Below are positions 1-16,638 of a stretch of 64,000 nt of DNA, in pieces. Below the pieces are notes generated by a model. That model worked only from the letters and a program-made list of their open reading frames with translations, did not search any database and was not told the origin of the DNA. This DNA comes from Escherichia coli (GTDB lineage Bacteria > Pseudomonadota > Gammaproteobacteria > Enterobacterales > Enterobacteriaceae), in NCBI RefSeq assembly GCF_003018255.1, contig NZ_CP027440.1. One strand, written 5' to 3'. Every line of letters starts with the position of its first letter. Positions within the stretch are counted from its first letter, which is position 1. Position numbers and translations under genes: made by a program.

Positions 1-1046
1 CCGTTCAGCTTGTCGTTTTCCTGGCTGATGTGCGAAAGCATCTCTTCGGCAATACCATGCGAATACGGCACCGCCACACAGAAGCTGGCCCCGGCAGGCA
101 TACTGTTCCATACCGGCGTAAAATCGAAACTGGCATCTACGCTGGCGGATTCATCATTTAACGCCACAAAGCTATGCCAGCCGTCGTTGCTCATTTCGAA
201 GCGTACGCCAGCAAAAGAAGGCATTAATCGCTGGTAGCCAAACCCCAGCAACCTGGCGCTGACAACAATACGCTGGCGTACTGGCGTTTTTTCAGCAGCA
301 CGCTCTTCCAGGCCAAAGCTGGCTTGCCAGCGTTTTTTACCGCTCAACAAATCACTTGCGATCGCCGTGGCTTCGGTATCCTGCTGGTCATCTTTAAACA
401 GCATATCCGTACTGGAAAACACCAGCATCTTGTCCTGATAAGTCGCGAACATCAGGGCGTTATTGCCGTTATAGCGCAACTGATAAACCGGGATGGTTTC
501 ACTATTTAGCTTAATACTACTGATTTCCGTTTTGCTTAACTGGCTGTCGCTGGTAGCGGCAAACAACAATGGCTCCAACAGTTTGCTTAAACCACTGCGC
601 TGGATCAGCACCATGTAATGTGAAAGATGGCCTTGTTTATCGTGCCATAGCGCCGCCTGCGCGGGCTGATCTAAGAGTGACGAAAAGAGCTTATCTTTCA
701 GCGTGAGATCGTGTTCATAGACAATGCGGCGAATGCTGCCTTCAATGCCCAGACGATCGGCATGATTCTGATAATAGAAAACGAAATCTTCACTCAGAAC
801 ATCGTGGAGAAACGGAATGGTAAGGAGGTCTTTGGGAAGCTGGCTCAGAGAGTCGCTGTCGAGAAAGAGGTCCGGCTCATTGAGATCGATTTGCAGATTG
901 TTGTGCACCACCAGCGGCGACAACGTTTTTTCTGGCCCACTGCCAGCATATTGCAACGCCCAGACGCCAGCGGAAAGCAGTACTATTGCGCCCAAACCTA
1001 CAAGACCATAGAACCGCCAGCCTTTCGCCTTTTTTTCACCACTCAT
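1..1046 (-). CDS. yfaA: DUF2138-family protein YfaA, N-terminal part (gene continues beyond window start)
   Basis: Manual minus-strand translation from the ATG at 1046-1044 stays open to position 1 (MSGEKKAKGWRFYGLVGLGAIVLLSAGVWALQYAGSG...), with a signal/TM-like N-terminus. It is absent from the ORF track only because it has no stop inside the window. Position downstream of gyrA matches my recollection of E. coli synteny. Confidence 0.6.
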   Translation of the reverse strand, partial: MSGEKKAKGWRFYGLVGLGAIVLLSAGVWALQYAGSGPEKTLSPLVVHNNLQIDLNEPDLFLDSDSLSQLPKDLLTIPFLHDVLSEDFVFYYQNHADRLGIEGSIRRIVYEHDLTLKDKLFSSLLDQPAQAALWHDKQGHLSHYMVLIQRSGLSKLLEPLLFAATSDSQLSKTEISSIKLNSETIPVYQLRYNGNNALMFATYQDKMLVFSSTDMLFKDDQQDTEATAIASDLLSGKKRWQASFGLEERAAEKTPVRQRIVVSARLLGFGYQRLMPSFAGVRFEMSNDGWHSFVALNDESASVDASFDFTPVWNSMPAGASFCVAVPYSHGIAEEMLSHISQENDKLN

Positions 1047-1194
1047 TGCCACATTCCTTGTGTAAAGCCAGCCATTTTTTACGAGCACAGCAAAACTTTA
1101 CCGCGCCCTAATACGACAAAAGCCCAGACTTTGCAGCCTGGACTTTTCAATTCAAACAAGGGAGATAGCTCCCTTTTGGCATGAAGAAGTAAAA

Positions 1195-3822
1195 TTATTC
1201 TTCTTCTGGCTCGTCGTCAACGTCCACTTCCGGAGCGATTTCATCGTCCCCTTCCGCGGCACTGCCGTCGATGGTATCCAGATCTTCCTCGTCAACCGGT
1301 TCAGCAACACGTTGCAGACCCACTACGTTTTCATCTTCCGCAGTACGGATGAGGATCACGCCCTGGGTGTTACGGCCCACGATGCTGATTTCCGAAACGC
1401 GAGTACGTACCAGCGTACCGGCATCGGTGATCATCATGATCTGGTCGCAGTCATCTACCTGCACCGCGCCAACCACTAAACCGTTACGTTCGGTAACCTT
1501 GATGGAGATAACCCCTTTCGTCGCACGCGACTTAGTCGGGTATTCCGCCACTGCGGTACGTTTACCATAACCGTTCTGCGTTGCGGTGAGGATTGCGCCA
1601 TCGCCACGAGGCACGATCAGAGAGACGACTTTATCGCCTTCGCCTAAACGAATACCGCGAACACCGGTGGTGTTGCAGCCCATCGCACGGACAGAAGACT
1701 CTTTAAAGCGCACCACTTTACCTTCGGCGGAGAACAGCATTACTTCGTCTTCGCCGCTGGTCAGGTCAACGCCGATCAGCTCATCGCCTTCAACCAGTTT
1801 GATCGCCACTTTACCGGCGGTACGCAGACGGTTGAACTCGGTGAGGACGGTTTTCTTCACAGTACCGTTAGCGGTCGCCATGAAGACTTTCACGCCTTCT
1901 TCAAACTCGGTCACCGGCAGGATCGCAGTGATACGTTCGTCCTGCTCCAGCGGCAGCAGGTTGACGATCGGACGACCACGCGCGCCACGAGTGGCTTCTG
2001 GTAACTGGTAGACCTTCATCGAATAGACGCGGCCACGGCTGGAGAAGCACAGAATATGGTCGTGGGTGTTCGCCACCAGCAGTCGGTCAATAAAGTCTTC
2101 TTCTTTAATACGTGCGGCAGATTTGCCTTTCCCGCCACGACGCTGCGCTTCGTATTCAGAAAGCGGCTGATACTTCACGTAGCCCTGGTGAGAGAGTGTT
2201 ACCACCACATCTTCCTGGGTGATTAGATCTTCCAGGTTGATGTCAGCGCTGTTGGCAGTGATTTCAGTACGACGTTTGTCGCCGAACTGTTCACGAACCA
2301 GCTCCAGCTCTTCGCGGATCACTTCCATCAGACGATCGGCACTGCCAAGAATACGCAGCAGTTCTGCGATCTGATCCAGCAGCTCTTTGTATTCGTCGAG
2401 CAGTTTTTCATGCTCAAGGCCGGTCAGTTTCTGCAAACGCAGATCCAGAATCGCCTGAGCTTGCTGTTCGGTCAGGTAGTACAGACCATCACGCACGCCG
2501 AACTCTGGCTCCAGCCATTCCGGACGCGCAGCATCATCGCCCGCACGTTCGAGCATGGCGGCAACGTTGCCCAGCTGCCACGGATTAGCCACCAGCGCAG
2601 TTTTCGCTTCTGCAGGCGTCGGCGCATGACGGATCAGTTCGATGATCGGGTCGATGTTCGCCAGCGCTACGGCTAATGCTTCAAGGATATGAGCACGATC
2701 GCGAGCTTTACGCAGTTCGAAAATAGTACGACGAGTCACCACTTCGCGGCGGTGACGAACAAACGCCGCGATGATGTCTTTCAGGTTCATGATCTTCGGC
2801 TGACCATGGTGCAATGCCACCATGTTGATACCGAAAGAAACCTGCAACTGGGTCTGGGAGTAGAGGTTGTTGAGCACAACTTCACCGACCGCATCGCGTT
2901 TCACTTCAATCACGATGCGCATACCGTCTTTGTCAGACTCGTCACGCAGCGCGCTGATGCCTTCCACGCGTTTTTCTTTTACCAGTTCCGCAATCTTCTC
3001 GATCAGGCGCGCTTTGTTTACCTGATACGGAATTTCGTGGACGATAATGGTTTCACGTCCGGTTTTGGCGTCAACTTCCACTTCAGCACGGGCGCGGATA
3101 TATACCTTGCCGCGACCGGTACGGTAAGCTTCTTCAATACCGCGACGACCGTTAATGATTGCCGCCGTCGGGAAGTCCGGCCCGGGGATGTGTTCCATCA
3201 GCCCTTCAATGCTGATGTCTTCATCATCGATATACGCCAGACAACCGTTGATGACTTCCGTCAAGTTGTGCGGCGGGATGTTGGTTGCCATACCTACGGC
3301 GATACCGGAAGAACCGTTCACCAGCAGGTTAGGAATTTTGGTTGGCATGACGTCGGGAATTTTTTCCGTGCCGTCATAGTTATCTACGAAATCGACCGTC
3401 TCTTTTTCGAGATCGGCCATCAGTTCATGGGCAATTTTCGCCAGACGGATTTCCGTATAACGCATTGCCGCCGCAGAGTCGCCGTCGATGGAACCGAAGT
3501 TACCCTGACCGTCTACCAGCATGTAACGCAGCGAGAATGGCTGCGCCATACGGACGATCGTGTCATAAACCGCCGAGTCACCATGGGGATGGTATTTACC
3601 GATTACGTCACCAACGACACGGGCAGATTTTTTATAGGCTTTGTTCCAGTCATTGCCTAGTACGTTCATGGCGTAAAGTACGCGACGGTGTACCGGCTTC
3701 AGGCCATCTCGGACATCTGGCAGCGCACGGCCAACAATGACCGACATCGCATAATCCAGATAGGAGCTCTTCAGCTCTTCCTCAATGTTGACCGGTGTAA
3801 TTTCTCTCGCAAGGTCGCTCAT
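1195..3822 (-). CDS. gyrA: DNA gyrase subunit A
   Basis: 875-aa ORF starting [17 protein letters not shown], with the GyrA active-site and QRDR region (..[20 protein letters not shown]..) and the acidic C-terminal tail DEPEEE. Confidence 0.97.
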
Positions 3823-3968
3823 CTAACCGCTATCCCTCTACTGTATCCCGGATTCAAAGGTCGCAAATTATAACACAGCCGCGCAGTTTGAGGTAAACCT
3901 ATACGCTTTATTCACATCCAATGCCTGATATACTCGTTTGTCTTGCCAATTACGGAGTAGAAGTGCCA

Positions 3969-4691
3969 ATGAATGCCGAAAAATCGCCGGTAAACCATAA
4001 CGTAGACCACGAAGAGATCGCTAAATTTGAAGCTGTCGCCTCCCGCTGGTGGGATCTTGAAGGTGAGTTCAAACCGCTGCACCGCATTAACCCGCTGCGT
4101 CTGGGCTATATTGCCGAGCGTGCTGGCGGTTTATTTGGCAAAAAGGTGCTCGATGTCGGTTGTGGCGGCGGCATTCTGGCCGAGAGTATGGCGCGCGAAG
4201 GTGCGACGGTGACCGGTCTGGATATGGGCTTTGAGCCATTGCAGGTGGCAAAGCTGCACGCGCTGGAAAGCGGCATTCAGGTGGATTACGTGCAGGAAAC
4301 CGTGGAAGAGCACGCGGCAAAACATGCCGGGCAGTATGATGTGGTGACCTGCATGGAGATGCTGGAGCACGTCCCCGATCCGCAGTCAGTGGTCAGAGCC
4401 TGTGCGCAACTGGTGAAACCGGGCGGCGATGTCTTTTTCTCGACGCTTAACCGCAACGGCAAGTCATGGCTGATGGCGGTGGTTGGCGCGGAATATATTT
4501 TGCGCATGGTGCCCAAAGGCACGCATGATGTGAAGAAGTTTATTAAACCGGCAGAGCTGCTGGGCTGGGTGGATCAGACCAGTCTTAAAGAGCGACATAT
4601 AACCGGGTTACATTACAACCCGATCACTAATTCCTTTAAGCTCGGCCCCGGCGTGGATGTGAACTATATGCTGCACACGCAGAATAAGTGA
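3969..4691 (+). CDS. ubiG: bifunctional 3-demethylubiquinone / 2-polyprenyl-6-hydroxyphenol O-methyltransferase
   Basis: ORF 3921-4691; the internal start [20 protein letters not shown] at 3969 matches the UbiG N-terminus as I recall it. SAM-methyltransferase motif [13 protein letters not shown]. Divergent from gyrA. Confidence 0.92.
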
Positions 4692-4727
4692 GGTTGTTGT
4701 TTGGATTCATCCGGCAACCGCGCCAAT

Positions 4728-4809
4728 GCCTGATGCGACGCTTGCCGCGTCTTATCAGGCCTACAAATGCTCTCCGTAGGCCTGATAAGGCGTTTACGCC
4801 GCATCCGGC
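4728..4809. repeat. REP/BIME element (two inverted REP units) between ubiG and yfaL
   Basis: GCCTGATGCGACGCTTGCCGCGTCTTATCAGGCCTAC at 4728-4764 and the inverted copy GTAGGCCTGATAAGGCGTTTACGCCGCATCCGGC at 4777-4809; classic REP consensus. Confidence 0.6.
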
Positions 4810-4831
4810 AATAGTGATGGTCAGACAGCGA

Positions 4832-7800
4832 TTACCATTTCACCGTCATCGACAAAAACCCTGCCGTCTGGGCAAAATCATCACTCCCTTTCTGCCACGC
4901 CACGCTGCCGCGCAGGGACACTCGCTGACTGATATTGCCCGTGACTCCCACTTTTATTTCACCCCGTTGCTTCACCCCATCGTCACTGATAGTGCTGCCA
5001 TCTTCTTCAATTTCCGTCGCATGGGGATCGTGATAATAATTCAGATCTAATGTTGGTATGACATGAACAGCGGTACGCCATTCGCTGTGTAAACCCAGCC
5101 GCGTCTGAATATCATCACCCTGCGATTGTGACACGCGCGCATGGTTAGCGGCGGTAAAATCATCCTGCTGCACGCCCTGATAAATCACCTGCGCCTGCGG
5201 TTCAATCACCACACCACGCCCCGGTAACCATTGATACCCGGCTTCCAGCGAGGCGATAATCCCCGACGAGTGGTAATGATCCACGCCATCGTCTTGTTCA
5301 GAAACATCATTGTTAAACCACGCATATTGCAGCCAGCTATCCAGCCAGACCCCCTGCTTCTGATTACCGTGCTGATACCAGCTTGAGGTCAGCCCAACGG
5401 CATAACCGTGGTTCTGGTTATCGGCGCGAGTTCCGCTCATATTCGAGCGGCTGTCGCCCTGGTTATCGCTGTAGCCACCAACAATCCCAAGCATCCACTC
5501 GCCATCATCACCCCAGTGCCTGCTAAACAGATCGCCGCTAAGCTGCACCGTAGAAGTGTCTTCATGCTGAGCCAGTTGCCCTGCCGCCGTGTAATGATAA
5601 CGCCCGCCGATAACGCGTAAATTCAGCGTCTGACCATCGCCACCAGCGTGATCGCGTCGCTCCATCACAAATGCCTGATTTGCCGCACGTAGGTTATTAA
5701 AATATCCACCAACTTTGGCATTCAACACCGGCTGGTAAGCAGGCGTAGGTCCAGGGTCGGGGGTTGGGTCGGGATCCGGCGTGGGATCAGGATCTGGAGT
5801 CGGGTCCGGATCGGGCGGCGGCGTCGGAGTGACTTCTTGCGATCGCAGATACCAGTCATTGTTATCTTCCACCAGCGTATAGTCATACGCCCCCATATTG
5901 ACGTAGCCGCTTCCTGCCAGACGGAACTGCGCATTGTTTTGAAACTGCGTGGGATCAGCTGCGAAATCAACCACTTTAATACCTGTAGATGTCGGCTCAC
6001 CAATACCCGTAATGGGGTTAATTACCACGGCCGTGTTGCCAGCAGTATTACCGTTCAATACCAGTTGGTCACTTGCCGAGTCATCGCCGTTTAATTCGCT
6101 GTCGAGCAGTAGCGTACCGCCGCCGGTATAATCACCATTTACCGTCAGCGTGTCGCCAGCGACGCCATTTTGCAGGCTAATCGCACCGGACGTATTGGTC
6201 AGATTGCCATTAACCGTCACGTCGGAAAGATAAGTCAGGCTGTCAGTTTCAAGGTTGGTATTAAGCTCGCCTGTCAGCGTCACGCCATCGGTGGCATTCA
6301 CCAACGTACCGTCGCCGCTAAACAGCGAGGCATCCAGCACCTGGTTCGTATCCTGCTGCGTCAATCGCAACACAGTACCATCGGTTATGTCGATATCGCC
6401 GCCAGAGGTGGCATCGATTGAGCGAATATCCTGATTTTGCCCGGTTTCAAAAACACCGTCTTCCCCCACCCACAGTGAAGAAACATAAGGAATAATATTC
6501 TCCGCTTCACCTTTTAGCGTTCCGTCCTCCACACGTACCGCAGACGTCGCAGTGCCGCTGGCGGTCAACTCCAGCGTACCGCCGCCACTTTTAGTCAACG
6601 TGCTTACGCTATCCAGTTGTTGCCCGGTACTATCCGCCATCAACCCGCCCCATTGCGTATCTACGCCATCCTCAACGTGTATTTCGCCATCAGCGCGCAT
6701 TTCAATATTCCTGCCCTGACCTGTTGTAGCCGAGCGAGTGTCAACATCAGTCGTCACATCCATTTCACTGTGTTGTTGGGGATCTGTGAAGATCACTGAA
6801 CGGTTGTAACTTGTGTCCCCCAATTGCGAATTATCGCTGACTTCAAGCGTACCGGAGGCGATTTGCGTATTACCGAGATAACCGTTGTTATTCGCCAGCG
6901 TTACGCGCTGATCCCCCGCATTAATGACGACATAAACGCCATTCTGGCTGGCATCACTGCCGCCAATATGTAAATCATCGCCACTGCTGATATCAACGAC
7001 ATCATTACTGCCAATCACTGTCCCCCCGCTGCCGCTGATTTGCAGACCGTCATTGTATGAGCTATCGCCATCCCAGGTGGTGAAATCAGAGAGATCCAAT
7101 ACTCCGCCATTTAGCACGATCGATTGCGGATCGCTCTGCATTGCCCGTAAATCGGCCTGATTCCCCGCTAGCGACAATACGGCGTTATCTTCCACCACAA
7201 TATCGCCGGTTAATGCCATCGACTGCGCCCCTGTCAGGAGATAGCTGCCATCTTGCGCTACCGTCAACTGTCCTTCACCCTGAATCGAGCCGGAAAAACC
7301 GCCCTGGTTTACGGTAACATTGCCGCCTGCGTCGATATTCAAAATGCCATTAGCAAAACCGGTTAATGAGTGCACAAACGTTTGTTGTGTATTGCCAACA
7401 TTCAGTTCTGCCTGATACTCAGAATGAACAGTGCTGCCGACCATCAGACCAAAGCAATCCTGCGGATCGCTCTGACAGTGCGTGTCGCCGACATTCATTA
7501 ACTCATCGCTGCGCCCCAACGTCACCTCGCCATTCTGGATACTTATCTCGCCGGTAAACGCATTATTGTCGGCATTGAGGACTAACTCTCCCGCTCCCTC
7601 TTTAACGATGACTCCCGTTCCGGCAAGAGAATCAATCGCGCCATCGTTGCTGGTATTGCCTATTACCAGCGTTTTATCGGCGGCAATGTTAAATTCAGCC
7701 ACACTATGACCGATATACATAAAGCCCCCCGCCGCTGCCGTCGCCGAATGGTCATATCCCGAGGCGCTGTTATTTTCATCAATCATCACACCATTGTTTT

Positions 7801-8596
7801 GGTCATAATTATCATCAACAGAAATATCAATAAGATACGGGGATGTGGTGCTGCTGGTATAAATTGCTCCGCCATAACCTTCTGCATAGTTATTGGTAAA
7901 GGAGGTATTATTAATTATCGTTTTTCCTGAAAGATGTGTGTTATCCGTACTATTATCCGTAACATCAATAGCGCCGCCATCCCCATCACTATAACTTGTT
8001 GATGTATATGCCTGGTTATTATTAAAAGCATCATCACTTAAATAGTCGTCATTATTGATGGTATAAATTGCACCGCCTTTGCCGTCATTAGCGATGTTAT
8101 TGTGAAATACGGCGTTAGTGACACGTAAATCGGCGGCACCGGTATCATTGGTACCGGCAGAATAGATTGCTCCGCCATAGCCTCCTGCAACATTACTGTC
8201 GAAAATAACATTCGCAAGATTTATCGTTGAGTTTTCTTTAGCAAAGATAGCCCCACCATTATTATATTCGCCACTAACCGAGTTATCAGCAAACAGGGTC
8301 ATCCCTGTTTCATTTTGTGGTGAAATCGTAAATTCAGCACTTTGCTGCAAAAATACTGCGCCACCGCTGGCATTATTGGCCATACCCGAAAAAATCAACC
8401 ATTGCCCATCCGCGATGCTCCAGTCCTGCATATTGCCCGAAAGGCTTTGCCTGCTGGCCTGACAGTTCGCTTTGATATCATATCCCTGGCATGAATCGAT
8501 GACCGCTGCGGCACCGTTACCAGAGAAAAGAGATGCAATCATTGACGGGAGTAAAGATAAATACTCCTTGCGTAGAAAGATAATCCGCATATTCAT
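4832..8596 (-). CDS. yfaL: AIDA-I-type autotransporter adhesin (passenger with beta-helix repeats, Pro-rich linker, C-terminal beta-barrel)
   Basis: 1254-aa ORF with an N-terminal signal peptide (true start may be the Met 2 codons in, at 8590), repetitive GGAIY / N-rich passenger, a TPDPDP linker and a C-terminal barrel domain ending ..FLSMTVKW. Confidence 0.9.
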   Translation of the reverse strand: MNMRIIFLRKEYLSLLPSMIASLFSGNGAAAVIDSCQGYDIKANCQASRQSLSGNMQDWSIADGQWLIFSGMANNASGGAVFLQQSAEFTISPQNETGMTLFADNSVSGEYNNGGAIFAKENSTINLANVIFDSNVAGGYGGAIYSAGTNDTGAADLRVTNAVFHNNIANDGKGGAIYTINNDDYLSDDAFNNNQAYTSTSYSDGDGGAIDVTDNSTDNTHLSGKTIINNTSFTNNYAEGYGGAIYTSSTTSPYLIDISVDDNYDQNNGVMIDENNSASGYDHSATAAAGGFMYIGHSVAEFNIAADKTLVIGNTSNDGAIDSLAGTGVIVKEGAGELVLNADNNAFTGEISIQNGEVTLGRSDELMNVGDTHCQSDPQDCFGLMVGSTVHSEYQAELNVGNTQQTFVHSLTGFANGILNIDAGGNVTVNQGGFSGSIQGEGQLTVAQDGSYLLTGAQSMALTGDIVVEDNAVLSLAGNQADLRAMQSDPQSIVLNGGVLDLSDFTTWDGDSSYNDGLQISGSGGTVIGSNDVVDISSGDDLHIGGSDASQNGVYVVINAGDQRVTLANNNGYLGNTQIASGTLEVSDNSQLGDTSYNRSVIFTDPQQHSEMDVTTDVDTRSATTGQGRNIEMRADGEIHVEDGVDTQWGGLMADSTGQQLDSVSTLTKSGGGTLELTASGTATSAVRVEDGTLKGEAENIIPYVSSLWVGEDGVFETGQNQDIRSIDATSGGDIDITDGTVLRLTQQDTNQVLDASLFSGDGTLVNATDGVTLTGELNTNLETDSLTYLSDVTVNGNLTNTSGAISLQNGVAGDTLTVNGDYTGGGTLLLDSELNGDDSASDQLVLNGNTAGNTAVVINPITGIGEPTSTGIKVVDFAADPTQFQNNAQFRLAGSGYVNMGAYDYTLVEDNNDWYLRSQEVTPTPPPDPDPTPDPDPTPDPDPTPDPGPTPAYQPVLNAKVGGYFNNLRAANQAFVMERRDHAGGDGQTLNLRVIGGRYHYTAAGQLAQHEDTSTVQLSGDLFSRHWGDDGEWMLGIVGGYSDNQGDSRSNMSGTRADNQNHGYAVGLTSSWYQHGNQKQGVWLDSWLQYAWFNNDVSEQDDGVDHYHSSGIIASLEAGYQWLPGRGVVIEPQAQVIYQGVQQDDFTAANHARVSQSQGDDIQTRLGLHSEWRTAVHVIPTLDLNYYHDPHATEIEEDGSTISDDGVKQRGEIKVGVTGNISQRVSLRGSVAWQKGSDDFAQTAGFLSMTVKW
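5745..5830 (-). repeat. in-frame Pro/Asp/Thr tandem repeat (PTPPPDPDPTPDPDPTPDPDPTPDPGPTP) inside yfaL
   Basis: Near-perfect 18-nt periodicity on the coding strand; linker between the passenger and translocator domains. Confidence 0.7.
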
Positions 8597-9123
8597 CTAA
8601 CCATCATTTTCTATAAGATGGCGTATTTAATCGCATTATGCGATATAGGGTATTTTTCTTTTGTAAATTCTGCCCCTGATGTAATAACTATTTTGTTATT
8701 ATCTGATAATTAATTTAGATGCATCACAATTCAAATTAATAACTTTAAGGTAAATCGGTTATATTTAAACTAAATTAAAGCAATAAATAATATTCTTATA
8801 ATAAATACAAAAGTAACAAATTGGCTTAGTATTTAACAATAACCGCATAGAAAACAACCATTTCGACATCAACAATCGCTTACATTCGCTTATATATTGA
8901 CCACAACTGATACATCAGATTATGTGATGACTCGTGCTTAGATCAATTTTTGCAATCATTAGCAAAAAGATTAATAAACCATCTATATCAATTTATCCAA
9001 CCTATTCTGCCGTTCAAGAAATCACCGAACAGTTATTTTTAACAAATTTTTCTCTTCCCATTGACTTTCCCGGACACCTTGTCTGACCTAAGGTGCGCGA
9101 AAGCCACTTTTTCCTTCCTGAGT

Positions 9124-9208
9124 TATCCACAAAGTTATGCACTTGCAAGAGGGCCATTTTCACACTATCTTGCAGTGAATCCCAAACATACCCCCTATAT
9201 ATAGTGTT
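9124..9208 (+). promoter_or_regulatory. nrdAB promoter region with a DnaA box (TTATCCACA, 9124-9132) and two NrdR-box-like palindromes (9161-9177, 9193-9208)
   Basis: Exact DnaA-box nonamer; CACACTATCTTGCAGTG and CCCTATATATAGTGTT resemble the NrdR box consensus; located about 80-160 bp upstream of the nrdA ATG. Confidence 0.5.
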
Positions 9209-9284
9209 CTAAGCAGCTTCCCTCACTACAGGTAGTCTGCATGAAACTATTGCGGAAAGAATTCCAAAAACAGGTACGACATAC

Positions 9285-11570
9285 ATGAATCAGAATCTGC
9301 TGGTGACAAAGCGCGACGGTAGCACAGAGCGCATCAATCTCGACAAAATCCATCGCGTTCTGGATTGGGCGGCAGAAGGACTGCATAACGTTTCGATTTC
9401 CCAGGTCGAACTGCGCTCCCACATTCAGTTTTATGACGGTATCAAGACCTCTGACATCCACGAAACCATTATCAAGGCTGCCGCAGACCTGATCTCCCGT
9501 GATGCGCCGGATTATCAGTATCTCGCCGCGCGCCTGGCGATCTTCCACCTGCGTAAAAAAGCCTACGGCCAGTTTGAGCCGCCTGCGCTGTACGACCACG
9601 TGGTGAAAATGGTCGAGATGGGCAAATACGATAATCATCTGCTGGAAGACTACACGGAAGAAGAGTTCAAGCAGATGGACACGTTTATCGATCACGACCG
9701 TGATATGACCTTCTCTTATGCTGCCGTTAAGCAGCTGGAAGGCAAATATCTGGTACAGAACCGCGTGACCGGCGAAATCTACGAAAGCGCCCAGTTCCTT
9801 TATATTCTGGTTGCCGCGTGCCTGTTCTCGAACTACCCGCGTGAAACGCGCCTGCAATACGTGAAGCGTTTTTACGACGCGGTTTCCACATTTAAAATTT
9901 CGCTGCCGACGCCAATCATGTCCGGCGTGCGTACCCCGACTCGTCAGTTCAGCTCCTGCGTACTGATCGAGTGCGGCGACAGCCTGGATTCCATCAACGC
10001 CACCTCCAGCGCGATTGTTAAATACGTTTCCCAGCGTGCCGGGATCGGCATCAACGCCGGGCGTATTCGTGCGTTGGGTAGCCCGATTCGCGGTGGCGAA
10101 GCATTCCACACCGGCTGTATTCCGTTTTACAAACATTTCCAGACAGCGGTGAAATCCTGCTCTCAGGGCGGTGTGCGCGGCGGTGCGGCAACACTGTTCT
10201 ACCCGATGTGGCATCTGGAAGTGGAAAGCCTGCTGGTGTTGAAAAACAACCGTGGGGTTGAAGGCAACCGCGTGCGTCATATGGACTACGGGGTACAAAT
10301 CAACAAACTGATGTATACCCGTCTGCTGAAAGGTGAAGATATCACCCTGTTCAGCCCGTCCGACGTACCGGGGCTGTACGACGCGTTCTTCGCCGATCAG
10401 GAAGAGTTTGAACGCCTGTACACCAAATATGAGAAAGACGACAGCATCCGCAAGCAGCGTGTGAAAGCCGTTGAGCTGTTCTCGCTGATGATGCAGGAAC
10501 GTGCGTCTACCGGTCGTATCTATATTCAGAACGTAGACCACTGCAACACCCACAGCCCGTTTGATCCGGCTATTGCACCAGTGCGCCAGTCTAACCTGTG
10601 CCTGGAAATCGCCCTACCGACCAAACCACTGAACGACGTCAACGACGAGAACGGTGAAATCGCGCTGTGTACGCTTTCTGCTTTCAACCTGGGCGCAATT
10701 AACAGCCTGGATGAACTGGAAGAGCTGGCAATTCTGGCGGTTCGCGCACTCGACGCACTGCTGGATTATCAGGATTACCCGATCCCGGCCGCTAAACGTG
10801 GAGCGATGGGGCGTCGTACGCTGGGTATTGGTGTGATCAACTTCGCTTACTACCTGGCGAAGCACGGTAAACGCTACTCCGACGGCAGCGCCAACAACCT
10901 GACGCATAAAACCTTCGAAGCCATTCAGTATTACCTGCTGAAAGCGTCTAATGAGCTGGCGAAAGAGCAAGGCGCGTGCCCGTGGTTTAACGAAACCACT
11001 TACGCGAAAGGGATCCTGCCGATCGATACCTATAAGAAAGATCTGGATGCCATCGCTAATGAGCCGCTGCATTACGACTGGGAAGCACTGCGTGAGTCAA
11101 TCAAAACGCACGGCCTGCGTAACTCCACGCTTTCTGCTCTGATGCCGTCAGAGACCTCTTCGCAGATCTCTAACGCCACTAACGGTATTGAACCGCCGCG
11201 TGGTTACGTCAGCATCAAAGCGTCGAAAGACGGTATTCTGCGCCAGGTGGTGCCGGACTACGAGCATCTGCACGACGCCTATGAACTGCTGTGGGAAATG
11301 CCGGGTAACGATGGCTATCTGCAACTGGTGGGTATCATGCAGAAATTTATCGATCAGTCGATCTCTGCTAACACCAACTACGATCCGTCACGCTTCCCGT
11401 CAGGAAAAGTGCCGATGCAGCAACTGCTGAAAGACCTGCTCACCGCCTACAAATTCGGGGTCAAAACGCTGTATTATCAGAACACCCGTGACGGTGCTGA
11501 AGACGCACAAGACGATCTGGTACCGTCAATCCAGGACGATGGCTGCGAAAGCGGCGCATGTAAGATCTGA
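9285..11570 (+). CDS. nrdA: ribonucleoside-diphosphate reductase 1 alpha subunit (class Ia)
   Basis: 761-aa ORF starting [26 protein letters not shown] (ATP-cone), catalytic Cys/Glu region, C-terminal CESGACKI. Confidence 0.97.
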
Positions 11571-11578
11571 TATTGAGA

Positions 11579-11610
11579 TGCCGGATGCGGCGTAAAATGC
11601 CTTATCCGGC
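11579..11610. repeat. REP-like palindrome in the nrdA-nrdB spacer
   Basis: GCCGGATGCGGCGTAAAATGCCTTATCCGGC imperfect palindrome of REP type. Confidence 0.45.
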
Positions 11611-11635
11611 ATTAAACTCCCAACAGGACACATTC

Positions 11636-12766
11636 ATGGCATATACCACCTTTTCACAGACGAAAAATGATCAGCTGAAAGAACCGATGTTCTTTGGTCA
11701 GCCGGTTAACGTGGCTCGCTACGATCAGCAAAAATATGACATCTTCGAAAAGCTGATCGAAAAGCAGCTCTCTTTCTTCTGGCGTCCGGAAGAAGTTGAC
11801 GTTTCTCGTGACCGTATCGATTACCAGGCACTACCTGAACACGAAAAACACATCTTTATCAGCAACCTGAAATATCAGACGCTGCTGGACTCCATTCAGG
11901 GTCGCAGCCCGAACGTGGCACTGCTGCCGCTGATCTCGATCCCTGAGCTGGAAACCTGGGTCGAAACCTGGGCGTTCTCAGAAACCATTCACTCTCGTTC
12001 TTATACCCATATCATTCGTAATATCGTTAACGATCCGTCTGTTGTGTTTGACGATATCGTCACCAACGAGCAGATCCAGAAACGTGCGGAAGGGATCTCC
12101 AGCTATTACGATGAGCTGATCGAAATGACCAGCTACTGGCATCTGCTGGGCGAAGGTACCCACACCGTTAACGGTAAAACCGTAACCGTTAGCCTGCGCG
12201 AGCTGAAGAAAAAACTGTATCTCTGCCTGATGAGCGTTAACGCGCTGGAAGCGATCCGCTTCTACGTCAGCTTTGCTTGTTCCTTTGCCTTTGCAGAACG
12301 CGAACTGATGGAAGGTAACGCCAAAATTATTCGCCTGATTGCCCGCGATGAAGCCCTGCACCTGACCGGTACTCAGCATATGCTGAATCTGCTGCGCAGC
12401 GGCGCGGATGATCCGGAGATGGCGGAAATTGCCGAAGAATGTAAGCAGGAGTGCTATGACCTGTTTGTCCAGGCGGCACAGCAAGAGAAAGACTGGGCGG
12501 ATTATCTGTTCCGTGACGGTTCGATGATTGGTCTGAATAAAGACATTCTCTGCCAGTACGTTGAATACATCACCAATATCCGCATGCAGGCAGTCGGTTT
12601 GGATCTGCCGTTCCAGACACGCTCCAACCCGATCCCGTGGATCAATACCTGGCTGGTGTCTGATAACGTGCAGGTTGCTCCGCAGGAAGTGGAAGTCAGT
12701 TCTTATCTGGTCGGGCAGATTGACTCGGAAGTGGACACCGACGATTTGAGTAACTTCCAGCTCTGA
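11636..12766 (+). CDS. nrdB: ribonucleoside-diphosphate reductase 1 beta subunit (diferric-tyrosyl radical)
   Basis: ORF 11573-12766; internal start [22 protein letters not shown] at 11636 matches the NrdB N-terminus as I recall it; the 5' extension lies in the REP-containing spacer. Confidence 0.95.
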
Positions 12767-13020
12767 TGGCTCGCGTTACCCTGCGCATCACTGGCACACA
12801 ACTGCTGTGCCAGGATGAACACCCTTCCCTTCTGGCGGCGCTGGAATCCCACAATGTGGCGGTTGAGTACCAGTGCCGCGAAGGTTACTGCGGTTCCTGT
12901 CGCACGCGCCTTGTTGCAGGCCAGGTGGACTGGATTGCCGAACCGTTAGCCTTTATTCAGCCGGGGGAAATTTTGCCCTGTTGTTGCCGGGCAAAAGGCG
13001 ATATTGAAATCGAGTTGTGA
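12766..13020 (+). CDS. yfaE: 2Fe-2S ferredoxin involved in maintaining the NrdB cofactor
   Basis: 84-aa ORF with the CxxxxCxxC...C ferredoxin cysteine pattern (CREGYCGSCRTRL...CCC); ATG overlaps the nrdB stop (TGATGG), suggesting translational coupling. Confidence 0.9.
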   Translation: MARVTLRITGTQLLCQDEHPSLLAALESHNVAVEYQCREGYCGSCRTRLVAGQVDWIAEPLAFIQPGEILPCCCRAKGDIEIEL

Positions 13021-13032
13021 TCGGGTACTAGC

Positions 13033-13068
13033 GCCAGATACGACGCTTACGCGTATTATCTGGCCTAC
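13033..13068. repeat. REP-like palindrome downstream of yfaE / inaA
   Basis: GCCAGATACGACGCTTACGCGTATTATCTGGCCTAC. Confidence 0.45.
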
Positions 13069-13073
13069 AACGA

Positions 13074-13724
13074 TTACATGGCGTAGTAATACGCTTTCAC
13101 CTGCTCCCAGTCCGCTTTAGGGATCGGCTCCAGATATTTTTCCAGCTGGCGGAAGTCATGATTAATCGCTTTATCGCGACGCAAGCGGCGACGACTTTTC
13201 TCCAGATCAAGAAAACCAGCTTCTGACTTACCTTCTGTTTTCACATAGATATGGCGAACATAGCAACAGCCATGCTGACGATTAACGCTATGCATTTTCT
13301 TAAACGCCAGCGCCACTGCTTTCAACATGGCTTGCCGTACTTCGTCAGAATAGGGCGTTACTGCATGCTGGGCATACCAGTCAGCAATGCTGATGAACCC
13401 CGCCATATCTTCAGTCACCAGCAACGCGCGCCATTCCCCCTCAATTTTCACCGCTTCACCAAAAACGATCTTCGGCACGATGACACCGGCCCGTTCCAGT
13501 TCTTTAATTACCGCAACCTCACGGACAATCGTTGGTCGGCCGAACGGATAACGTACGGAATGAAACAGATGATGCGTCATGCGCTTTACATATAGCTTTT
13601 TGCCGTTGCGCTCGACGCATTGCACCCCGCTCATACCATTACGGCGATAGTTAGGCTCTTCAACCCAGTCGCCCTCTGTTGCCCACCAGTGATTAAATTC
13701 GTCGTGCTTTGCTGAAACTGCCAT
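13074..13724 (-). CDS. inaA: acid-inducible Kdo/WaaP-family kinase-like protein
   Basis: 216-aa ORF starting MAVSAKHDEFNHWWATEGDWVEEPNYRRNGMSGVQ; position matches InaA. Confidence 0.88.
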   Translation of the reverse strand: MAVSAKHDEFNHWWATEGDWVEEPNYRRNGMSGVQCVERNGKKLYVKRMTHHLFHSVRYPFGRPTIVREVAVIKELERAGVIVPKIVFGEAVKIEGEWRALLVTEDMAGFISIADWYAQHAVTPYSDEVRQAMLKAVALAFKKMHSVNRQHGCCYVRHIYVKTEGKSEAGFLDLEKSRRRLRRDKAINHDFRQLEKYLEPIPKADWEQVKAYYYAM

Positions 13725-13926
13725 ACCCTATCGCCTGTCGTTTTTTATTAACGACAATGACTATAGATGTTTAGCTGAGGAAAATCTTAATAATACGTGT
13801 TGTATTGACGAGTATCTTATGCCGGGAACAAGTCATCTCGCTCAAAATAATTGCAATTAAGGATAACCCACAGACTTTAATGAAGAGTGGTATCGGATAG
13901 CACATAAGTGCCATCCGGTAGTTAAT

Positions 13927-15003
13927 TTACTCTTTATTAAGAAATTTTACTGCCTTATCAGGGAAATCAGTAAATAGCCCATTTACACCCGCTTTGTTAT
14001 ACAGAGCATCATATAACTGATTCACATCAGTAGTGTATTCAGGCAGTTTATCTGACCGCACGGTATAAGGATGCACTACCAGCTTGTTCTGCTGAGCATC
14101 TTGCACCATGCCAGTGAGTTTGATATTACCCGGCTGCGATGTCTCCTCAATCAACATATGGTAATCCGGACCAATACCATCTGCATATTCCGCCACCTGT
14201 TTCATGGCTCCCGGCTTAAACATCCAGTCGTAGTTGTAATTAACCCAGCTTCCGTCCGGCTGTTTCTGCTGCGTTTCATTCCAGTCGGTATAGGCAATCA
14301 GCTGTACCAGATTGAGGTCCATGCCCATTTTAGGTTCCAGCTCATTCTTAATACGCTTCAGTTCATCGGCATCAAAACATTGCAAATAAACTTTGTCGTC
14401 CTTACCGCTGTAACCATATTTCTTCAGCACTTCCAGCGTTTTTGCCGCAATATCCTTCCCTTCCTGATGATGGAACCACGGCGCTTTAATTTCTGGATAG
14501 ATACCGATATTTTTCCCGGTAGAGTGATTTAACCCCTGAACAAATTCAATCTCTTCTTCGAAAGTGTGTACCCGGAAGTCAGATTTACCCATCGGGAAAC
14601 GGCCCGGATAAGTCTGTACTTTCTTACCGTTTTCAATATCGAAACCTTCGGTAAATTTCAGTGACTTAATTTCATCGAGCGTGAAATCTATCGCGTAGTA
14701 ACGACCGTCTTTGCGCGCCCGATCCGGGAAACGATCGGCAACATCAGTAACACGATCGAGATAATGGTCATGCAGGACAACCAGATGGTCGTCCTTCGTC
14801 ATCACCAAATCCTGTTCCAGATAATCCGCTCCCTGCGCATACGCCATCGCTTTTGCTGGCAGCGTATGCTCCGGCAAATATCCACTGGCACCGCGATGGG
14901 CGATGACTATTTTTTCGTTGCTGTCCGCCGCCATTGCACTACTTCCCATGACCATAGTGCTCATCATGATCGCCATGCTAAGGTTTTTCAGCGTCAATTT
15001 CAT
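13927..15003 (-). CDS. glpQ: periplasmic glycerophosphodiester phosphodiesterase
   Basis: ORF 13927-15060; the signal-peptide start MKLTLKNLSMAIMMSTMVMGSSAMA at 15003 is preferred; lies 4 nt downstream of glpT. Confidence 0.93.
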   Translation of the reverse strand: MKLTLKNLSMAIMMSTMVMGSSAMAADSNEKIVIAHRGASGYLPEHTLPAKAMAYAQGADYLEQDLVMTKDDHLVVLHDHYLDRVTDVADRFPDRARKDGRYYAIDFTLDEIKSLKFTEGFDIENGKKVQTYPGRFPMGKSDFRVHTFEEEIEFVQGLNHSTGKNIGIYPEIKAPWFHHQEGKDIAAKTLEVLKKYGYSGKDDKVYLQCFDADELKRIKNELEPKMGMDLNLVQLIAYTDWNETQQKQPDGSWVNYNYDWMFKPGAMKQVAEYADGIGPDYHMLIEETSQPGNIKLTGMVQDAQQNKLVVHPYTVRSDKLPEYTTDVNQLYDALYNKAGVNGLFTDFPDKAVKFLNKE

Positions 15004-15007
15004 GCCA

Positions 15008-16366
15008 TTAGCCTCCGTTGCGTTTTTGCAGTAATTCCTGATGGCGACGTTTTTCGCCAATCATCACAACAATCAACAAGATAACCGCGAGAATGCTGCC
15101 GCCAATCATTACCATAAAGCCGCCATCCCAGCCGAAGAAGTCCACGGTGTAGCCAACAATCGCGCTCGCCGCCACCGAACCGCCCAGGTAACCAAACAGC
15201 CCGGTAAAGCCCGCTGCCGTACCTGCCGCTTTTTTCGGTGCCAGTTCCAGCGCATGCAGACCGATCAACATCACAGGACCGTAAATCAGGAAGCCGATAA
15301 CAATCATACAGATCATATCGACGTTCGGATTGCCCGCCGGGTTCATCCAGTAAACGATAGTCGCGATGGTCACCAGTGTCATAAAGAAGACGCCGGTGGC
15401 CCCACGGTTGCCACGGAAGACTTTATCCGACATCCAGCCGCACAGCAGGGTGCCCGGAATGCCCGCATACTCATAGAAGAAGTAGGCCCAGGAGGATTTA
15501 TCCAGCGCGAAGTGTTTCACCTCTTTCAGATAAGTCGGTGACCAGTCGAGGATGCCGTAACGCAGCAGATAAACGAACACGTTGGCGATAGCGATGTACC
15601 ACAGCAATTTGTTCGGCAGCACGTACTGCATGAAGATTTGCTTCGCAGTCAGCTCCTGTTCCGCTTTTTCGTTATAGTCGTCCGGATAATCATTTTTGTA
15701 CTCTTCGATCGGCGGCAGGCCACAAGATTGCGGGGTATCGCGCATCATCGCAAAGGCGAACAGTGCCACCAGAATGGCGCAGAAAGCGGGCATATAGAGC
15801 GCCGCGTGCCAGTCATTGAACCAGGCCATCCCCAGCAGGAACAGCAGCGGCGGAATACCACCACCGACGTTGTGCGCACAGTTCCACACTGACACAATGC
15901 CGCCACGTTCTTTCTGCGACCACCAGTGCACCATAGTACGACCACACGGCGGCCACCCCATCCCCTGGAACCAACCGCAGAGGAACAACAGTACAAACAT
16001 CACCGCAATGCTCGACGTCGCCCACGGCACAAAGCCCATAAACAACATCACTGCCGCCGCCAGAATCAAACCTGCGGGCAGGAAAACGCGCGGATTCGAG
16101 CGATCCGACACCGAGCCCATGATGAATTTCGAAAATCCATAAGCGATCGAGATCCCAGAAAGCGCGAAACCTAAATCACCGCGTGAGAATCCCTGCTCGA
16201 CCAGGTAAGGCATAGCAAGCGCAAAGTTCTTACGAACCAAATAGTAAGCAGCATAGCCAAAGAATATCCCCAGGAAAATTTGCCAGCGCAATCGACGATA
16301 AGTCGGATCGATCTCCGCGGCAGGTAAGCGCGCTTTGTGTGGCGCTGGTTTAAAAATACTCAACAT
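15008..16366 (-). CDS. glpT: glycerol-3-phosphate:phosphate antiporter (MFS)
   Basis: 452-aa ORF starting [31 protein letters not shown], multi-TM MFS. Confidence 0.95.
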
Positions 16367-16638
16367 TGATAGCCTCCGTGGCCCGTGGTCTTATTTATGA
16401 TTAACAGCCTGATTCAGTGGGAGAACCTGCCGTTTCTTGAGTTGCCGCGATGTTAAGAAAACATTCATAAATTAAATGTGAATTACCGCACACATTATTA
16501 AATACGATGGTTTAAATGTTCAGAATGACGCATGAAATCACGTTTCACTTTCGAATTGTGAGCGAATATGCGCGAAATCAAACAATTCATGTTTTTACTA
16601 TGGCTAAATGGTAAAAAACGAACTTCAGAGGGATAACA
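16367..16638. promoter_or_regulatory. divergent glpTQ / glpACB control region; CRP-like site TGTGAattaccGCACA at 16477-16492
   Basis: 272-bp divergent spacer; sequence match to the CRP consensus TGTGA-N6-TCACA; GlpR operators are expected here but I did not map them confidently. Confidence 0.45.

Follow-up and report, generated by a model that had tools for sequence, protein, structure and literature searches.

The promoter of inaA in Escherichia coli K-12 reportedly belongs to the mar/sox/rob regulon. Binding sites of MarA, SoxS and Rob (marboxes) are said to follow the consensus AYnGCACnnWnnRYYAAAYn, with a spacing of 18-19 bp between the marbox and the -10 hexamer in class II promoters. 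In K-12-type strains, the spacer between glpQ and inaA is 462 bp long, and RefSeq annotates in it the 3' ends of two genes, for an MFS transporter and a LysR regulator, the LysR fragment of MG1655 being the pseudogene yfaH (b2238). The O157:H7 spacer is 4058 bp long and holds an island of three genes, namely an intact MFS transporter gene, oriented as inaA is, a divergent LysR gene, and a gene encoding a 356-aa protein. The PinaA reporter of Rossi and Dunlop responds to MarA (PMC5257004), and inaA is listed as a validated target of the GcvB R3 seed in E. coli (PMC9299463).

Here, the same junction is considered in a stretch of 64,000 nt of E. coli DNA (the window; contig NZ_CP027440.1), with the gene order nrdB, yfaE (plus strand), inaA (minus strand), spacer, glpQ and glpT (both minus strand). 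Positions 13725-13926 comprise the complete inaA-glpQ intergenic spacer. We estimate at about 85% the probability that this spacer is an island-free allele without a gene remnant, made up of a hairpin at the 3' end of glpTQ, a marbox-dependent inaA promoter and a leader with a GcvB site. In the sense of inaA transcription, the predicted order is a REP-like hairpin closing glpTQ, 70 bp of filler, the marbox/-10 promoter, and a leader of about 29 nt. This reading draws on the anatomy of the spacer and its conservation, on the promoter arrangement being unique in the window, and on the lack of coding homology, all of which are direct observations. Two things had originally been predicted for this spacer: the promoter of inaA is supported, and the degenerate gene remnant is not. 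The features are as follows.

13074-13724, minus strand: inaA coding sequence, 216 aa, running from 13724 to 13074; downstream flank of the spacer.
13724-13739, minus strand: predicted GcvB R3 pairing site, GACAGGCGAUAGGGUA, covering the ribosome-binding region and the A of AUG.
13725-13753, minus strand: inferred inaA 5' leader, about 29 nt, with an A-rich tract at 13749-13741.
13760-13765, minus strand: -10 hexamer TATAGT, 18 bp downstream of the marbox and about 35 bp before the ATG.
13784-13803, minus strand: predicted marbox (MarA/SoxS/Rob site), ACAACACGTATTATTAAGAT, in forward orientation, overlapping the -35 position.
13804-13823, minus strand: conserved block upstream of the marbox, GGCATAAGATACTCGTCAAT.
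13824-13893, no strand: lineage-specific filler, 70 bp with no recognisable function, replaced by the island in other E. coli.
13875-13893, minus strand: second marbox-like sequence, ATACCACTCTTCATTAAAG, with 2 mismatches; its centre lies about 130 bp before the inferred start site.
13894-13917, minus strand: REP-like stem-loop, 9 nt past the glpQ stop, CGGATGGCAC-TTAT-GTGCTATCCG, with a 10-bp stem.
13927-15003, minus strand: glpQ coding sequence, 358 aa from the ATG, with the TAA stop at 13929-13927; flanks the spacer upstream with respect to transcription.

The spacer is AT-rich, with a G+C content of 37.6% vs 52.2% in the whole window. An initial inspection had described it as about 200 bp without any ORF of 60 aa or more, and this description holds, since the exact length is 202 bp and the longest ORF has 47 aa (13771-13914, minus strand). 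The lack of an ORF of at least 60 aa says little, however, as no more than about 67 codons fit into 202 bp. RefSeq annotation of genomes with the same allele shows no feature inside the spacer. In the mechanical list of ORFs, glpQ extends to a TTG start (13927-15060, minus strand, 377 aa), and its annotated start is the ATG at 15003 (358 aa, MKLTLKNL...).

The marbox consensus is matched upstream of inaA, at 13803-13784, in 11 of the 14 specified positions, with A replacing the G of GCAC. Still, consensus matches of such quality are found in the window at chance level (129 observed vs 131 expected), and thus the marbox scan proposed at the outset does yield a site, but the match alone is uninformative. 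The orthologous K-12 marbox has the same consensus score, and it differs from that of the window in three positions, all of which are N or W in the consensus. The composite arrangement (a marbox with at most three mismatches, a distance of 18-19 bp, and a -10-like hexamer), which was defined after the site had been seen, occurs only once on both strands of the 64-kb window, at 13803, and is found in 90 of 20,000 dinucleotide shuffles of the spacer (0.45%). There is no match to the -35 hexamer upstream of TATAGT, and a scan of the spacer with the plain sigma-70 consensus finds no promoter, as would be expected for an activator-dependent one.

Comparison of 24 sequences from at least eight genera shows that the best conserved columns upstream of inaA are CAC, YTAAG and TATAnT. 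The combination of CAC...YTAAG with TATAnT is kept in most genera aligned, in particular, in Escherichia, Citrobacter, Intestinirhabdus, Leclercia and Pluralibacter, whatever gene is located upstream.

The primers with which the PinaA reporter was built (PMC5257004, Table S1) delimit the homologous K-12 fragment, which ends at the equivalent of position 13751, 9 nt after the -10 hexamer. As the reporter fragment ends there, transcription should start at or just upstream of 13751, and we infer a start site near 13753. The response of the promoter fragment to MarA has been shown by others for the homologous K-12 sequence, and by analogy it may be expected in the window. The full-text literature search did not find a published inaA marbox or start site in accessible sources. 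The composite arrangement, the conservation across genera and the homologous K-12 PinaA reporter together uphold the original prediction that the inaA promoter is situated in this spacer. The position of the marbox over the -35 position suggests that, as in class II promoters, RNA polymerase would depend on bound MarA, SoxS or Rob at the window allele, and that stresses such as salicylate and other weak acids or superoxide generators would induce inaA.

Outside the spacer, the 19 specified or degenerate marbox positions are matched perfectly at 16485-16503 (plus strand, ACCGCACACATTATTAAAT), the only site of the window with zero mismatches. It is located in the control region between the divergent genes glpT and glpA, about 120 bp before the ATG of glpT and about 140 bp before that of glpA. 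The number of matches with at most one mismatch in the window is at chance level (2 vs 1.0 expected), and the perfect match may be meaningless.

The leader is predicted to form a duplex with nucleotides 149-175 of GcvB (MG1655 gcvB) with an energy of -20.1 kcal/mol, matched by 1.5% of shuffled targets. All Escherichia alleles retain the complementarity of the leader to GcvB R3, and so does Citrobacter. The targeting of inaA by GcvB was demonstrated by others for the homologous K-12 sequence, and, if it extends to this allele, pairing of the leader site with R3 over the ribosome-binding site would repress the translation of inaA. These values come from a search restricted to R3, which replaced an unrestricted duplex prediction that gave unrealistic pairing of the whole molecule, no better than that of shuffles. 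The inverted repeat TGTCGTT/AACGACA (13756-13736) was also considered as a possible leader hairpin and rejected; the inferred start site falls inside its 5' arm, and the repeat is not kept in E1V33 or E69.

The G+C-rich hairpin following glpQ has a folding energy of -19.7 kcal/mol (z = -4.2) and is found at the same place in every Escherichia allele and in C. amalonaticus. In the alignment of seven alleles and species, 70 of 70 cells are paired, with compensatory changes in three pairs, though this is a small sample, and the same seven sequences served to derive the structure. The stem is followed by AUACCACU and not by a U tract, and the scan of the spacer with the terminator consensus finds no terminator. 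Hence the hairpin likely forms the 3' end of the glpTQ transcript or stabilises it, having a 3'-end-protecting or weakly terminating role; it may also not terminate transcription at all. Its arms fit a loose REP pattern, as do five or six REP-type palindromes of the window, which has several canonical REPs, and no Rfam model matches the hairpin. The spacer between the convergent genes yfaE and inaA (13021-13073) is likewise filled by a REP-type palindrome, GCCAGATA...TATCTGGCCTAC, with a folding energy of -29.8 kcal/mol and a sub-threshold match to the Rfam model naRNA4 (26.9 bits, E = 0.028).

As glpQ and inaA are transcribed in the same direction and lie 202 bp apart, with only a hairpin lacking a U tract between them, transcription of glpTQ could read through into inaA. 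In K-12 and O157-type strains, unlike the window, a convergent LysR gene or its fragment is located between glpQ and inaA. That read-through feeds inaA in B2-type strains only is, in our estimate, quite improbable. If it did, a stress gene of the MarA/SoxS/Rob set would be coupled to glycerol-3-phosphate and GlpR-CRP control in an allele-specific manner. The second marbox-like sequence (13893-13875), located in the filler, could add to such a difference between alleles. In E69, a 39-bp indel breaks its 3' half, and the sequence is probably a chance match.

The megablast search of positions 13650-14000 against 5426 complete E. coli genomes gave matches in 5425 of them, with end-to-end coverage in only about 1057. 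According to a 79-base probe from the middle of the spacer, the island-free allele is present in 1056 of the 5426 genomes, including CFT073, 83972 and ATCC 25922; the probe occurs once per carrier genome and is absent elsewhere in the E. coli set. The intact three-gene island is found in 711 genomes. The most common form is the K-12-type wreck, accounting for approximately 60% of the 4370 island-matching genomes, as judged from an evenly spaced listing of the matches. Further forms of the junction are a two-gene island and variants interrupted by IS1 or IS66. The small pseudogene originally suspected near here does exist as yfaH, but it belongs to the 462-bp K-12 allele and not to that of the window, which corrects the initial guess.

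From inaA, the homology of the window to the K-12 and O157 alleles extends as far as 13823. Towards glpQ, it restarts at 13895 in the case of K-12, but only at 13927 in the case of O157; the interval 13823-13895 has no match to either allele. The inaA promoter is intact in all forms of the junction, reaching as far as the stop codon of the MFS gene next to it. Among island-bearing strains, the third gene of the O157:H7 island (11840-12910 of the extracted locus), whose 356-aa product belongs to no Pfam family, is present only in a part, and it is absent from the islands of the cryptic clades. In E. coli APEC_AN-25 (6082-8600 of the extracted locus), an IS66-family element is inserted 7 bp upstream of the inaA start codon, separating the gene from its promoter, that is, a natural promoter disconnection. 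The window inaA (13074-13724) is closer to that of O157:H7 (99.4%) than to that of ATCC 25922 (97.8%), yet the spacer is of the ATCC 25922/CFT073 type, which suggests a recombination breakpoint near the inaA start.

Outside the E. coli allele, the filler is shared only with the genome deposited as E. coli E69, a divergent Escherichia whose inaA and glpQ are about 12% different from those of E. coli. The identity of the filler in the two is approximately 87% outside a 39-bp indel. No match to the filler was found within 7 kb upstream of inaA in 24 other loci, nor in phages, and among plasmids there was one match only. An origin of the filler from mobile DNA was rejected, as phages give no match and the lone plasmid match sits in a chromosomal block. 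This block, occupying positions 1-13600 of the locus extracted from the IncF conjugative plasmid pEco1162T7a (NZ_CP051662.1), includes the spacer along with gyrA (flagged as fluoroquinolone-resistant), ubiG, yfaL, nrdAB, yfaE and inaA, and ends at a copy of IS26; it may have arisen by IS26-mediated capture of the gyrA region, or else be an artefact of assembly.

The short allele is most simply read as an old, island-free arrangement, the island having replaced the filler in other lineages. In Citrobacter and Intestinirhabdus, glpQ adjoins inaA, the spacers being 176-286 bp long and containing no island. The E69 spacer is the short allele as well, with the filler. Other arrangements are seen in more distant genomes: in a Leclercia MAG and in Shimwellia pseudoproteus, glpT adjoins inaA with no detectable glpQ between them, and in Pseudocitrobacter, Pluralibacter and Hafnia, inaA has other upstream neighbours. 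Salmonella is reported to lack inaA (PMC9299463).

Alternatively, the short allele could be secondary in the B2 and E69 lineages, having arisen there either when the island was lost or when recombination in the conserved flanks replaced one allele by another, with the same function of the spacer. The three cryptic Escherichia lineages that are nearest to E. coli carry the MFS and LysR island, as do most E. coli; the locus is mosaic, its inaA being 99.4% identical to that of O157 and 97.8% to that of ATCC 25922; and the filler was not found in Citrobacter. On the other hand, adjacency of glpQ and inaA without the island is the rule outside Escherichia, and a deletion would need base-exact ends at both genes. 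Moreover, the spacers of the window and E69 are approximately 84% identical, apart from the single 39-bp indel, vs 87-88% identity of the flanking genes, and this similar degree of divergence fits long vertical descent. Hence a secondary origin seems rather unlikely, though it deserves to be kept in mind, and the ancestral, island-free state of the short allele is preferred.

It is very unlikely that the spacer as a whole, or the 70 bp in its middle, is what is left of yfaH/LysR, the MFS gene or some other decayed gene, even though other E. coli do have gene fragments at exactly the same place. The 20 bp at 13804-13823 are homologous to the end of the MFS gene, aligning with its last five codons and stop in the island-bearing alleles. 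However, the island-free spacers of E69 and Citrobacter contain these bases as well (in the latter, as AGAAATCC), and thus this homology is not a gene leftover; we conclude that the block probably represents inaA upstream sequence which has been entered by the MFS reading frame.

The remainder of the middle (13824-13893) has no DNA match to any island allele, and blastn finds no similarity of the spacer middle to the LysR, MFS or 356-aa island genes. At the protein level, tblastn of the three island proteins against the spacer (E<=100) gives only chance-level matches, no better than those of unrelated control proteins, so that the check by translated homology suggested along with the remnant provides no trace of it. 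Pfam finds nothing in the spacer, nor does Rfam at E<=10 over 13000-14600. When the 51-codon open frame was compared with 5.8 billion proteins, the only match was a 44-aa "hypothetical protein" from E. coli MS 185-1, which is the same sequence, produced by a gene finder. Seventy AT-rich bases could hide a very old remnant; nevertheless, with no protein homologue and no translated similarity above chance, the spacer is best described as free of gene remnants.

That the 47-aa ORF (13914-13771, minus strand) encodes a real small protein is hardly credible, since, despite its ATG start and the single call of a 44-aa version in E. coli MS 185-1, it begins inside the glpQ hairpin and reads through the marbox, is broken by stops after 21 codons in E69, has neither homologues nor a Pfam match, and is not annotated by PGAP in the listed genomes with the same allele.

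Overall, the spacer is ordinary, and its K-12 counterpart has already been described. What is added here are base-level coordinates of the inaA control elements in a B2-type strain and, as a mildly useful by-product, the finding that the glpQ-inaA junction is multi-allelic among 5426 complete E. coli genomes.

In comparison with the described systems, the MFS-LysR(-hypothetical) island of K-12 and O157 occupies the same chromosomal site between the same flanks, but none of its sequence is present in the window, which has 70 bp of unrelated filler instead. The hairpin after glpQ resembles REP elements in being a stable imperfect palindrome with CCGGATG...TATCCG arms just past a stop codon; unlike canonical REPs, it is shorter, occurs as a single copy, and has neither the GGCCTAC tail nor the central consensus. 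It also differs from the intrinsic terminators of glpQ in Citrobacter and Intestinirhabdus, which are canonical and have a U tract. As for the GcvB R3-seed targets (inaA, nlpA, panD and phoP; PMC9299463), the window leader is complementary to GcvB nucleotides 150-163 over the ribosome-binding site, the pairing being predicted.

The closest counterpart is the orthologous K-12 inaA promoter, as the 100 bp preceding the ATG can be aligned without large gaps. Beyond position -100 the sequences are unrelated, with the filler in the window and fragments of the MFS and LysR genes in K-12, and several further substitutions are found in the block upstream of the marbox, while the two alleles agree in the consensus positions of the marbox, in the -10 hexamer and in the distance that separates them.
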